Shown here: piece after piece, positions 9,273 through 45,690 of the stretch
How the letters are laid out: every line of letters starts with the position of its first letter
How positions within the stretch are numbered: position 1 is the stretch's first letter
NCBI RefSeq assembly: GCF_054482595.1
Contig: NZ_CM137008.1
DNA length: 64,000 bases
Strand: one strand, 5' to 3'
Notes under the pieces: generated by a model
What the model saw: the letters and a program-made list of their open reading frames with translations, nothing else
Database searches by the model: none
Told to the model about the DNA's origin: nothing
Program-made: the position numbers and the translations under genes

Positions 9273-10583
9273 ATGGGTCAGGTTTTACCGCTGGTTACCC
9301 GCCAGGGCGATCGTATCGCCATTGTTAGCGGTTTACGTACGCCTTTTGCCCGCCAGGCGACGGCTTTTCATGGCATTTCCGCGGTTGATTTAGGGAAGAT
9401 GGTGGTAGGCGAACTGCTGGCACGCAGCGAGATCCCCGCCGAAGTGATTGAACAACTGGTCTTTGGTCAGGTCGTACAAATGCCTGAAGCTCCCAACATT
9501 GCGCGTGAAATTGTTCTCGGTACTGGAATGAATGTGCATACCGATGCTTACAGTGTCAGCCGCGCTTGCGCTACCAGTTTCCAGGCGGTTGCAAACGTCG
9601 CAGAAAGCCTGATGGCGGGGACTATCCGAGCGGGGATTGCCGGTGGGGCAGATTCCTCTTCGGTATTGCCAATTGGCGTCAGTAAAAAACTGGCGCGCGT
9701 GCTGGTTGATGTCAACAAAGCCCGCACAATGAGCCAGCGTCTGAAACTCTTCTCTCGCCTGCGTTTGCGCGACTTAATGCCCGTACCACCTGCGGTAGCA
9801 GAATATTCTACCGGCTTGCGGATGGGCGACACTGCAGAGCAAATGGCGAAAACCTACGGCATCACCCGAGAACAGCAAGATGCATTAGCGCACCGTTCGC
9901 ATCAGCGTGCCGCTCAGGCATGGTCAGACGGAAAACTCAAAGAAGAGGTGATGACTGCCTTTATCCCTCCTTATAAACAACTGCTCGCGGAAGACAACAA
10001 TATTCGCGGTAATTCCTCGCTTGCTGATTACGCAAAGCTGCGTCCGGCGTTTGATCGTAAACACGGCACGGTAACGGCGGCGAACAGTACGCCGCTGACC
10101 GATGGCGCAGCGGCGGTGATCCTGATGACTGAATCCCGGGCGAAAGAATTAGGGCTGGTACCGCTGGGATATCTGCGCAGCTACGCATTTACCGCTATTG
10201 ATGTCTGGCAGGACATGTTGCTCGGTCCAGCCTGGTCAACACCGCTGGCGCTGGAGCGTGCCGGTTTGACGATGAGCGATCTGACATTGATCGATATGCA
10301 CGAAGCCTTTGCAGCTCAGACACTGGCGAATATTCAGTTGCTGGGTAGTGAACGTTTTGCTCGTGAAGCACTGGGGCGTGCACATGCCACTGGCGAAGTG
10401 GACGATAGCAAATTTAACGTGCTTGGCGGTTCGATTGCTTACGGGCATCCCTTCGCGGCGACCGGCGCGCGGATGATTACCCAGACATTGCATGAACTTC
10501 GCCGTCGCGGCGGTGGATTTGGTTTAGTTACCGCCTGTGCTGCCGGTGGGCTTGGCGCGGCAATGGTTCTGGAGGCGGAATAA
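9273..10583 (+). CDS. fadI: 3-ketoacyl-CoA thiolase (anaerobic beta-oxidation)
   Basis: 436-aa thiolase-family ORF; stop overlaps the fadJ start (TAATG). Confidence 0.92.
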
Positions 10584-12727
10584 TGGAAATGGCATCAGCG
10601 TTTACTCTTAATGTTCGTCTGGACAACATTGCTATCATCACCATCGACGTACCGGGTGAGAAAATGAATACCCTGAAGGCGGAGTTTGCCTCGCAGGTGC
10701 GCGCCATTATTAAGCAACTCCGTGAAAACAAAGAGTTGCGCGGCGTGGTCTTTATTTCCGCGAAACCAGACAACTTTATCGCCGGAGCTGACATCAACAT
10801 GATCGGCAACTGCAAAACGGCGCAAGAAGCGGAAGCTCTGGCGCGGCAGGGCCAACAGTTGATGGCGGAGATTCATGCTTTGCCCATTCCGGTTATCGCG
10901 GCTATTCATGGCGCTTGCCTGGGTGGTGGGCTGGAGTTGGCGCTGGCGTGCCACGGTCGCGTTTGTACTGACGATCCTAAAACGGTGCTCGGTTTGCCTG
11001 AAGTACAACTTGGATTGTTACCCGGTTCAGGCGGCACCCAGCGTTTACCGCGTCTGATAGGCGTCAGCACAGCATTAGAGATGATCCTCACCGGAAAACA
11101 ACTTCGGGCGAAACAGGCATTAAAGCTGGGGCTGGTGGATGACGTTGTTCCGCACTCCATTCTGCTGGAAGCCGCTGTTGAGCTGGCAAAGCAGGATCAT
11201 CCATCTTCCCGCCCTCTACCTGTACGCGAGCGTATTCTGGCGGGGCCGTTAGGTCGTGCGCTGCTGTTCAAAATGGTCGGCAAGAAAACAGAACACAAAA
11301 CTCAAGGCAATTATCCGGCGACAGAACGCATCCTGGAGGTTGTTGAAACGGGATTAGCGCAGGGCACCAGCAGTGGCTATGACGCTGAAGCACGGGCGTT
11401 TGGCGAACTGGCGATGACGCCACAATCGCAAGCTTTGCGTAGTATCTTTTTTGCCAGTACGGAAGTGAAGAAAGATCCCGGTAGTGATGCGCCGCCTGCG
11501 CCATTAAACAGCGTGGGAATTTTAGGTGGTGGCTTGATGGGCGGCGGTATTGCTTATGTCACTGCTTGTAAAGCGGGGCTTCCGGTCAGAATTAAAGATA
11601 TCAACCCGCAGGGCATAAATCATGCGCTGAAGTACAGTTGGGATCAGCTGGAGGGCAAAGTTCGCCGTCGTCATCTCAAAGCCAGCGAACGTGACAAACA
11701 GCTGGCATTAATCTCCGGAACGACGGACTATCGCGGCTTTGCCCATCGCGATCTGATTATTGAAGCTGTGTTTGAAAATCTCGAATTGAAACAACAGATG
11801 GTGGCGGAAGTTGAGCAAAATTGCGCCGCTCATACCATCTTTGCTTCGAATACGTCATCTTTACCGATTGGTGATATCGCCGCTCACGCCACGCGACCTG
11901 AGCAAGTTATCGGCCTGCATTTCTTCAGTCCGGTGGAAAAAATGCCGCTGGTGGAGATTATTCCTCATGCGGGTACATCAGCGCAAACCATCGCCACTAC
12001 GGTAAAACTGGCGAAAAAACAGGGCAAAACGCCCATTGTCGTGCGTGACAAAGCCGGGTTTTACGTCAATCGCATCTTAGCGCCTTACATTAATGAAGCT
12101 ATCCGCATGCTGACCGAAGGTGAACGGGTAGAGCACATTGATGCCGCGCTAGTGAAATTTGGTTTTCCGGTAGGTCCAATCCAACTTTTGGATGAGGTAG
12201 GAATCGACACCGGGACTAAAATTATTCCTGTACTGGAAGCCGCTTATGGAGAACGTTTTAGCGCGCCTGCAAATGTTGTTTCTTCAATTTTGAACGACGA
12301 TCGCAAAGGCAGAAAAAATGGTCGGGGTTTCTATCTTTATGGTCAGAAAGGGCGTAAAAGCAAAAAACAGGTCGATCCTGCCATTTACCCGCTCATTGGC
12401 GCACAAGGGCAGGGGCGACTCTCCGCACCGCAGGTTGCTGAACGGTGTGTGATGTTGATGCTGAATGAAGCAGTACGTTGTGTTGATGAGCAGGTTATCC
12501 GTAGCGTGCGTGACGGGGATATTGGTGCGGTATTTGGCATTGGTTTTCCGCCATTTCTCGGTGGACCGTTTCGCTATATCGATTCTCTCGGCGCGGGCGA
12601 AGTGGTTGCAATAATGCAACGACTGGCCACGCAGTATGGTTCACGTTTTACCCCTTGCGAGCGTTTAGTCGAGATGGGTGCGCGTGGGGAAAGTTTTTGG
12701 AAAACAACTGCAACTGAACTGCAATAA
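10583..12727 (+). CDS. fadJ: Fatty acid oxidation complex alpha subunit (enoyl-CoA hydratase / 3-hydroxyacyl-CoA dehydrogenase)
   Basis: 714-aa ORF; N-terminal crotonase fold and central NAD-binding [13 protein letters not shown] motif. Confidence 0.92.
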
Positions 12728-12929
12728 GAAGGTCAAAGCTATATGAATCCGCGCTGAATGGCGGAGTGTTGGTCAAAATGCAAACGCATATTGACTATAC
12801 TTACGCCATTGAGGTAAAAAACAGCGTTTCATTCGGTGAATGGATAAGGCACAATGCCGGCCACCGTTTTCTTTCTCTGGTTTCAGATGAAAGAAAACGG
12901 GCGAATCTGGTTAACAAAAGCGGTGCAAT

Positions 12930-44201: not shown

Positions 44202-44290
44202 TCGCCATCGGTGAAAGAAAGCCCGCTCCCTTCGGGTAACCGGAGGGAGACAAGAGGCGGTAATTCACCACACACGACAGGACAGGCAGC

Positions 44291-44977
44291 ATGTTGTATG
44301 GGTTTTCAGGTGTTATTTTACAGGGTGCGCTCGTCACGCTGGAGCTGGCTATCAGCTCTGTAGTGCTCGCTGTAATCATCGGTTTAATTGGCGCTGGCGG
44401 TAAGCTCTCGCAAAATCGGCTTTCGGGGCTGATTTTCGAAGGGTACACCACGCTGATTCGTGGCGTGCCGGACTTAGTGTTGATGCTGCTGATTTTCTAC
44501 GGTTTGCAGATTGCGCTAAACACGGTGACGGAGGCGATGGGCGTCGGGCAGATTGATATCGATCCGATGGTCGCTGGTATTATCACTCTCGGTTTTATCT
44601 ACGGTGCTTATTTTACCGAAACGTTCCGTGGTGCTTTTATGGCAGTGCCGAAAGGACATATAGAGGCGGCGACGGCGTTCGGTTTTACTCGTGGGCAAGT
44701 GTTTCGGCGGATCATGTTTCCGGCGATGATGCGTTACGCCCTGCCAGGCATTGGCAACAACTGGCAGGTGATCCTCAAATCTACCGCACTGGTTTCGTTA
44801 CTCGGCCTGGAAGATGTGGTCAAAGCCACCCAACTGGCAGGCAAAAGTACCTGGGAACCGTTCTATTTCGCCATCGTCTGTGGCGTGATTTACCTGGTTT
44901 TCACCACTGTTTCCAATGGTGTGCTGCTGTTCCTTGAGCGCCGCTACTCCGTGGGTGTGAAGAGGGCTGACCTGTGA
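44291..44977 (+). CDS. hisQ: Histidine ABC transporter permease
   Basis: 228-aa membrane ORF; stop overlaps the hisM start. Confidence 0.92.
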   Translation: MLYGFSGVILQGALVTLELAISSVVLAVIIGLIGAGGKLSQNRLSGLIFEGYTTLIRGVPDLVLMLLIFYGLQIALNTVTEAMGVGQIDIDPMVAGIITLGFIYGAYFTETFRGAFMAVPKGHIEAATAFGFTRGQVFRRIMFPAMMRYALPGIGNNWQVILKSTALVSLLGLEDVVKATQLAGKSTWEPFYFAIVCGVIYLVFTTVSNGVLLFLERRYSVGVKRADL

Positions 44978-45690
44978 TCGAAATCTTACATGAATACTGG
45001 AAACCGCTGCTGTGGACCGACGGTTATCGCTTTACTGGTGTGGCGATCACTCTGTGGCTGCTTATTTTGTCGGTAGTGATAGGCGGAGTCCTGGCGCTGT
45101 TTCTGGCGATTGGTCGTGTCTCCAGTAATAAATACATCCAGTTTCCAATCTGGTTATTTACCTATATTTTTCGCGGTACGCCGCTGTATGTTCAGTTGCT
45201 GGTGTTCTATTCCGGCATGTACACGCTTGAGATTGTTAAGGGAACCGAATTCCTTAACGCTTTCTTCCGCAGTGGCCTGAACTGTACCGTGCTGGCGCTG
45301 ACGCTTAACACCTGCGCTTACACTACCGAGATTTTTGCTGGGGCAATCCGTTCAGTGCCGCATGGGGAAATTGAAGCCGCCAGAGCCTATGGCTTCTCGA
45401 CCTTTAAAATGTATCGCTGCATTATTTTGCCTTCTGCCCTGCGTATTGCTCTACCGGCATACAGCAACGAAGTGATCCTGATGCTGCACTCTACTGCGTT
45501 GGCGTTTACTGCCACGGTGCCGGATCTGTTGAAAATAGCCCGCGATATTAACGCCGCCACGTATCAACCTTTTACCGCCTTCGGCATTGCCGCGGTGCTC
45601 TATTTAATCATCTCTTATGTCCTGATCAGCCTCTTTCGCAGAGCGGAAAAACGCTGGTTGCAGCATGTGAAACCTTCTTCAACGCACTGA
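44974..45690 (+). CDS. hisM: Histidine ABC transporter permease
   Basis: 238-aa membrane ORF. Confidence 0.92.

Follow-up and report, generated by a model that had tools for sequence, protein, structure and literature searches.

Overlapping gene junctions of Escherichia coli were analyzed in a 64,000-nucleotide (nt) stretch of contig NZ_CM137008.1 (assembly GCF_054482595.1), hereafter called the window, and mainly between its positions 9273 and 45690. Gene calls were taken from the RefSeq/PGAP annotation of E. coli XH990 (NZ_CP019359.1), transferred directly onto the window coordinates. Positions 8001-48000 of the window differ from positions 1524939-1564938 of that genome by 1 mismatch in 40 kb, and a megablast search of positions 9000-30000 against complete E. 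coli genomes returned 100% matches. The region corresponds to the fadL–lrhA part of the E. coli chromosome; its counterpart in K-12 MG1655 lies at 2.42-2.46 Mb, in reverse orientation, and carries a curated annotation. The preliminary description of this DNA listed nine overlapping junctions. Eight of them are real in annotation and sequence, with spacings identical in the curated K-12 annotation, whereas the ninth, yfcP/yfcO, shows a 1-nt gap (TAAgATG) in the window and K-12 annotations alike. That list omitted aroC/mepA (+3), hisM/hisP (+7) and a convergent overlap between yfcJ and flk; when further overlaps were sought elsewhere in the window through the annotation, none was found. All eight overlapping pairs sit within known or obvious operons, namely fadIJ, the yfc chaperone-usher fimbrial operon, prmB-aroC-mepA-yfcA-epmC-yfcL, pdxB-usg-truA, folC-dedD and hisJQMP. 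The overlapping and closely spaced junctions are given below, the strength of each Shine-Dalgarno (SD) motif being expressed as the energy of its duplex with the 3' tail of 16S rRNA.

10571..10585, + strand: fadI/fadJ, spacing -1 (TAATG); SD motif GGAGG at 10571-10575, fadI stop TAA at 10581-10583, fadJ start ATG at 10583-10585; SD -9.3 kcal/mol
18607..18625, + strand: yfcR/yfcQ, spacing -4 (ATGA); SD-like motif GGTGGTGGA, yfcQ ATG at 18622, yfcR stop TGA at 18623-18625; SD -6.2 kcal/mol
19091..19107, + strand: yfcQ/yfcP, spacing -4 (ATGA); SD-like motif GGGTGGA, yfcP ATG at 19104; SD -5.9 kcal/mol
19626..19632, + strand: yfcP/yfcO, 1-nt spacer (+1) in TAAgATG, no overlap; yfcO ATG at 19630; no SD (-2.2 kcal/mol)
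23501..23509, + strand: aroC/mepA, near-abutting at +3 (TAAaaaATG); no SD (-2.8 kcal/mol)
24329..24333, + strand: mepA/yfcA, spacing -1 (TAATG); yfcA start at 24331; no usable SD (-3.1 kcal/mol)
25128..25142, + strand: yfcA/epmC, spacing -1 (TAATG); SD-like motif GGGGA, epmC start at 25140; SD -5.5 kcal/mol
34282..34301, + strand: usg/truA, spacing -1 (TAATG); SD motif CAGGAG at 34282-34287, truA start at 34299; SD -6.9 kcal/mol
38240..38261, + strand: folC/dedD, 11-nt overlap; SD motif GAGGAG at 38240-38245, dedD GTG at 38251, folC stop TAA at 38259-38261; SD -8.9 kcal/mol
44960..44977, + strand: hisQ/hisM, spacing -4 (GTGA); SD motif AAGAGGG, hisM start at 44974; SD -6.3 kcal/mol
45688..45700, + strand: hisM/hisP, close junction at +7; no SD (-2.7 kcal/mol)

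Seven of the eight overlapping pairs belong to the -4/-1 class, in which stop and start codons share bases; folC/dedD overlaps further, at -11, and yfcP/yfcO, at +1, falls outside the class. Since bare motifs are common in positions 9273-45690 (346 ATGA/GTGA and 161 TAATG/TGATG/TAGTG), the sighting of such a motif is uninformative by itself. Counted as gene spacings, 7 of the 43 co-directional pairs in the window lie exactly at -1 or -4, where a flat expectation drawn from the 32 pairs spaced between -20 and +100 is 0.53 (P = 8e-7). This spike is universal, -4 and -1 being the commonest spacings across all prokaryotes (PMC12548453; PMC10666635; also PMC6728339). Among 2,987 unidirectional pairs of E. 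coli, 707 (24%) lie within -8 to +6 (Huber et al. 2023, PMC10666635). The corresponding share is 9 of 31 pairs in positions 9273-45690 (P = 0.30 against the genome-wide value) and 9 of 43 in the whole window, that is, 21-29%; no enrichment of tight junctions over the E. coli genome was therefore found in this test, and the region is typical. It also resembles the genome-wide distribution (PMC10666635, PMC12548453) in its peaks at -4 and -1 and in its embedded SD motifs. It differs in having more pairs at -1 (four) than at -4 (three), numbers that are too small to weigh, and in the -11 overlap, which represents a rarer overlap phase. The junctions are textbook E. coli operon organisation, conserved and non-random, already present in public annotation and already known.

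To assess the conservation of the spacings, loci were collected in a scan anchored on Usg, with one genome per species, which gave 80 Enterobacteriaceae loci with 10-kb flanks; orthologues were located by tblastn, and stop and start codons were read off. The usg/truA overlap is -1 in 80 of 80 species (46 with TGATG and 34 with TAATG), and folC/dedD keeps its -11 spacing, GTG start and TAA stop in 72 of 72. The mepA/yfcA spacing is -1 in 33 of 35 species, and aroC/mepA ranges from 0 to +4 in 32 species. Loose spacers vary across the same loci, from 60 to 69 nt for pdxB/usg, 9 to 54 for epmC/yfcL, 23 to 82 for truA/dedA and 62 to 192 for accD/folC. The remaining pairs hisQ/hisM and fadI/fadJ were compared on contigs retrieved via HisM and FadI homologues. 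The hisQ/hisM junction reads GTGA in Salmonella and Klebsiella, and the Salmonella histidine permease operon hisJQMP, which carries the AAGAGGG motif as well, shows no difference at this junction; Erwinia and Pantoea have ATGA rather than GTGA. Both TAATG and the SD motif of fadI/fadJ are kept in Salmonella, Buttiauxella, Klebsiella quasipneumoniae and Franconibacter, while these four genera do not share the ATG at codon 3 of E. coli FadJ (MEM...). Both ATGA overlaps of the yfc operon (yfcR/yfcQ and yfcQ/yfcP) are common to the window and the diverged K-12 alleles. Across Enterobacterales, the identity of the stop and start codons changes but the spacing stays constant. The yfcA/epmC junction was found at -1 (TAATG) in 36 of 45 species, at -4 (ATGA) in 6, at +3 in 1 and at +16 in 2; it interconverts between forms, whereas the spacing of usg/truA and folC/dedD never varies.

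An SD motif embedded in the upstream gene precedes seven of the eight downstream starts, the exception being yfcA. As 12% of intragenic positions in the region reach -5.5 kcal/mol or lower, seven of eight corresponds to a binomial P of 2.5e-6. Conservation of these motifs extends to synonymous sites within the upstream gene. All 78 distinct sequences compared share the CAGGAG ahead of truA, and third-codon conservation in the last 21 nt exceeds that further upstream in usg (0.91 vs 0.75), folC (0.89 vs 0.74) and yfcA (0.87 vs 0.76). In mepA, whose downstream neighbor yfcA has no SD, third-codon conservation is lower near the junction than further upstream (0.79 vs 0.91). Local RNA folding was not unusually stable in 91-nt windows at eleven junctions compared with shuffled sequences (z from -1.26 to +1.08).

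N-terminal proteomics had been proposed as a check on the start codons, and published data confirm the GTG start of dedD (K-12 position 2431684, window position 38251) through the N-terminal peptides MASKFQNR and ASKFQNR, with further support from Ribo-RET and INRI-seq (TRAINSPOTTER, PMC13245402 Table S1). Among the eight overlap genes, dedD is the only one with a directly mapped start. The same table includes entries for hisP, aroC, fadI and further genes, with a mapped N-terminus for HisP, and holds no N-terminal peptides for fadJ, yfcQ, yfcP, yfcA, epmC, truA and hisM; near hisM and fadJ, the INRI-seq supplements list out-of-frame alternative sites only. Besides dedD, indirect evidence supports the overlap codon as start: the codon is conserved in 4 to 80 species, truA and epmC have no alternative start candidate within their first 30 codons, and alignments with full-length NCBIfam models begin at residue 1 of FadJ (1-707 to 1-707), YfcQ (StfF model), DedD and HisM (1-236 to 1-236). 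Judging from these comparisons, the annotated start codons of fadJ, yfcQ, yfcP, yfcA, epmC, truA, dedD and hisM are the conserved ones and probably those in use.

It had also been claimed that the overlaps constrain the choice of start codon where open reading frames (ORFs) are ambiguous. This proved weak, since neither of the only two ambiguous cases linked to overlaps, dedD and yfcO, is settled by a preference for overlap: both dedD candidates overlap folC (TTG at -29 and GTG at -11, the GTG being chosen through its SD and N-terminomics) and the preferred yfcO start does not overlap yfcP. The longest-ORF start of yfcO, a TTG at 19615 giving a 14-nt overlap, was rejected; it has no SD (+0.7 kcal/mol) and both annotations use the ATG at 19630, which opens a typical signal peptide, MKIIRRFLGFLTLLLFSLGAHA (MKIIRRF...). 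In K-12 (position 2451584), the annotation begins yfcR (MTGGVMSQKFV...) at a TGATG in which it overlaps the stop of yfcS. In window positions 18116-18136 the matching TGATG is not in the yfcR frame; there the gene starts 15 nt further on (+15), at the ATG at 18134, which has the SD GGGAGAG and aligns with the second ATG of K-12. This makes a longest-ORF artefact the probable explanation of the overlapping K-12 start. A rule that prefers overlaps is unsafe when used alone for picking starts, as dedD, yfcO and K-12 yfcR illustrate. At aroC (window positions 22415-22420), published N-terminomics gives the annotated ATG plus an alternative GTG one codon upstream; GTGATG is present in the window, where the longest ORF begins at the GTG.

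Overlaps of -4 and -1 constitute the most efficient class for translational coupling (Brown and Wade 2025, PMC12548453). The efficient range, from about -4 to +3, takes in the seven pairs at -1/-4 together with yfcP/yfcO (+1) and aroC/mepA (+3); at the -11 of folC/dedD, coupling efficiency has already begun to fall. Premature-stop reporters normalised to transcript level showed coupling for four of the five native E. coli -4 pairs examined (hyfH-hyfI, astD-astB, ydbH-ynbE and menD-menH), with a contribution of the SD in four of the five (Huber et al. 2019, PMC6728339). Those pairs combine an ATGA or GTGA overlap with an SD embedded upstream, and yfcR/yfcQ, yfcQ/yfcP and hisQ/hisM are built exactly alike. 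The tested set includes no pair from the window, however, and four of the eight window pairs lie at -1 (TAATG) and one at -11. In the classical coupled pairs trpE-trpD, trpB-trpA, galT-galK and rplK-rplA, upstream translation raises downstream expression 1.7- to 7-fold in reporters (PMC7538156). In the classical pairs, as in the window pairs, the stop codon overlaps the start codon or comes close to touching it; coupling is proven by experiment for the former, whereas for the latter it is proposed from anatomy and conservation. The details of the trp pairs reportedly stem from work by Oppenheim and Yanofsky in 1980.

Coupling presupposes a single transcript, and the overlaps offer no space between the genes in which a terminator or promoter could lie; mRNA levels are equal for usg/truA and folC/dedD. 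The latter values come from Supplementary file 1 of Burkhardt 2017 (PMC5318159), which covers these two among the pairs. For usg and truA, mRNA is 196 and 198 and ribosome density 207 and 77 (ratio 0.37), and for folC and dedD, mRNA is 159 and 154 and ribosome density 145 and 62 (ratio 0.43). With equal mRNA and such density ratios, translation of these two pairs is not 1:1. E. coli pairs spaced from -8 to +10 are 4.5-fold enriched for subunits of heteromeric complexes (PMC10666635). Going by annotation and general knowledge, two to four of the eight window pairs encode partners of this kind, the products of mepA/yfcA/epmC, usg/truA and folC/dedD being functionally unrelated. We take FadI and FadJ to form the fatty acid oxidation complex, HisQ and HisM to belong to the HisQMP2 permease, and the Yfc proteins to be subunits of one fimbria.

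Taken as a whole, the junctions are very probably ordinary operon-internal junctions of E. coli, at which coupling would be partial, not 1:1. A ribosome finishing the upstream gene would land on the downstream initiation site and raise its use, either by keeping the site unfolded or through occasional re-initiation, while the embedded SD would also recruit free 30S subunits for de novo initiation. The outcome would be partial facilitation combined with SD-driven de novo initiation. The preliminary description had taken the overlaps to indicate coupling. Their spacing class, operon context and conservation fit this claim, but overlaps permit coupling rather than indicate it; seven of the eight starts have their own embedded SD, so that independent initiation is also possible, and translation is unequal where values exist. 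Coupling of the eight pairs is plausible, judged by anatomy and conservation. Several points weigh against it. No junction structure exceeds that of shuffled sequences, which leaves the RNA-unfolding route without specific support, and the conserved spacing could be due in part to double coding constraint rather than to selection for coupling. The ratios of 0.37 and 0.43 for truA and dedD are equally compatible with fully independent initiation. The bioB-bioF overlap is not coupled (PMC6728339), and depletion of ribosome recycling factor (RRF) left coupling and ribosome-density ratios of overlapping pairs unchanged in E. coli (PMC7538156). A literature search found no published tests of the eight pairs with premature stops or without a ribosome-binding site.

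One alternative is that the overlaps are neutral by-products of gene-end evolution, in which ATG becomes ATGA by one mutation or a gene that has lost its stop runs on to the next stop, every downstream gene being initiated de novo from its own SD and none being coupled. We consider this somewhat unlikely. It would agree with the SDs at seven of eight starts, with the unequal translation of truA/usg and dedD/folC at equal mRNA, with the lack of any unusual local structure that would need unfolding and with the uncoupled bioBF pair (PMC6728339). Saito 2020 (PMC7538156) also favours de novo initiation, Brown and Wade (PMC12548453) ascribe the abundance of -4 overlaps to evolutionary ease, and partners of one complex are found only in fadIJ, hisQM and, loosely, the fimbrial subunits. 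Neutral origin accounts poorly, however, for a spacing that does not vary (80/80 and 72/72 species) even though the stop (TGA/TAA) or start (GTG/ATG) changes and neighbouring spacers drift. A harmless one-base insertion would separate TAATG, yet none was seen; SD-less yfcA still lies at -1 in 33/35 species, and four of the five tested -4 pairs of E. coli are coupled (PMC6728339). A second alternative is strict termination-reinitiation, by which the same ribosome would translate both genes at a fixed stoichiometry, especially for FadI/FadJ and HisQ/HisM. Spacings of -4 and -1 are the class assigned to this mechanism, and the 4.5-fold enrichment of complex subunits at -8 to +10 (PMC10666635) is in line with it, as are the FadIJ and HisQM complexes and the SD-less yfcA, mepA, yfcO and hisP at -1 to +7. 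HisM in a hisQ deletion is about 5-fold below HisQ in a hisM deletion (PMC12094219), a difference that complex stability or polarity could explain. The density ratios of two pairs contradict fixed 1:1 use, RRF depletion was without effect genome-wide, overlapping pairs included (PMC7538156), and SDs conserved at synonymous sites imply that 30S recruitment matters; strict reinitiation is thus distinctly unlikely.

Another reading concerns the tight junctions without an SD. At aroC/mepA (+3), mepA/yfcA (-1), yfcP/yfcO (+1) and hisM/hisP (+7), termination-reinitiation might be obligate, prmB-aroC-mepA-yfcA-epmC might act as a translational relay, and the invariant -11 spacing might set DedD at about 0.4 of FolC. 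We find this proposal unlikely as a whole. If true, the relay would fix the ratios of proteins with unrelated functions, namely a murein endopeptidase of the periplasm, a membrane transporter and the EF-P hydroxylase. Finally, some or all overlaps could be annotation artefacts, the true starts lying at in-frame codons downstream, such as those available in fadJ (codon 3), yfcP (codon 8), yfcA (codon 9) and dedD (several GTG). The overlapping K-12 yfcR start looks like such a longest-ORF artefact, and the seven genes from fadJ to hisM listed above have no N-terminal peptide on record. Nevertheless, all species examined have kept the overlapping start codon, in contrast to the codon-3 ATG of fadJ, and truA and epmC contain no other candidate among the first 30 codons. 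In addition, peptides verify the start of dedD, alignments with family models begin at residue 1, and the signal peptides of YfcQ and YfcP require the annotated N-termini, so that an artefact is highly improbable.

Under the preferred reading of partial coupling, yfcA, mepA, yfcO and hisP are the likeliest genes to depend truly on upstream translation, because they have no SD, and the junctions flag them as such. Otherwise the overlaps have little import beyond annotation hygiene. They are useful for the design of deletions, where polar effects on hisM, truA, dedD and epmC come into play, and for operon refactoring.

In positions 32000-46600 of the window, terminator-like hairpins were found after pdxB, accD and hisP and ahead of cvpA, and none at the tight junctions within this scanned range. 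Two strong ones, at 33233-33260 (pdxB-usg) and 36932-36958 (accD-folC), lie inside the usual gene clusters and directly upstream of the overlap-bearing usg-truA and folC-dedD segments. They may be relevant to the read-through that feeds these segments. A further overlap joins genes on opposite strands:

30990..30993, yfcJ on the + strand and flk on the - strand: convergent genes whose stops share the palindrome TTAA, a 4-nt tail-to-tail overlap

Being convergent, this overlap cannot be translationally coupled.

At the left end of the window (positions 1-3250), sucrose-utilisation genes were observed, comprising cscA, an oligosaccharide MFS transporter and an aminoimidazole riboside kinase, which by its position is the csc kinase. 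The same interval holds a tRNA-Arg gene with an adjoining DUF4942 fragment, an arrangement that suggests a strain-variable islet at a tRNA site. The dedD-cvpA spacer (window positions 38914-39444) measures 531 nt against 258 nt in K-12, because the window carries, in tandem, four copies of a repetitive extragenic palindrome/bacterial interspersed mosaic element (REP/BIME) unit of about 91 nt (gcctgatgcgacgctgg.gcgtcttatcaggcctac...) where K-12 has one. Three of these copies, at 38976-39046, 39067-39137 and 39158-39228, score above the gathering threshold of the Rfam family naRNA4 (RF02564).

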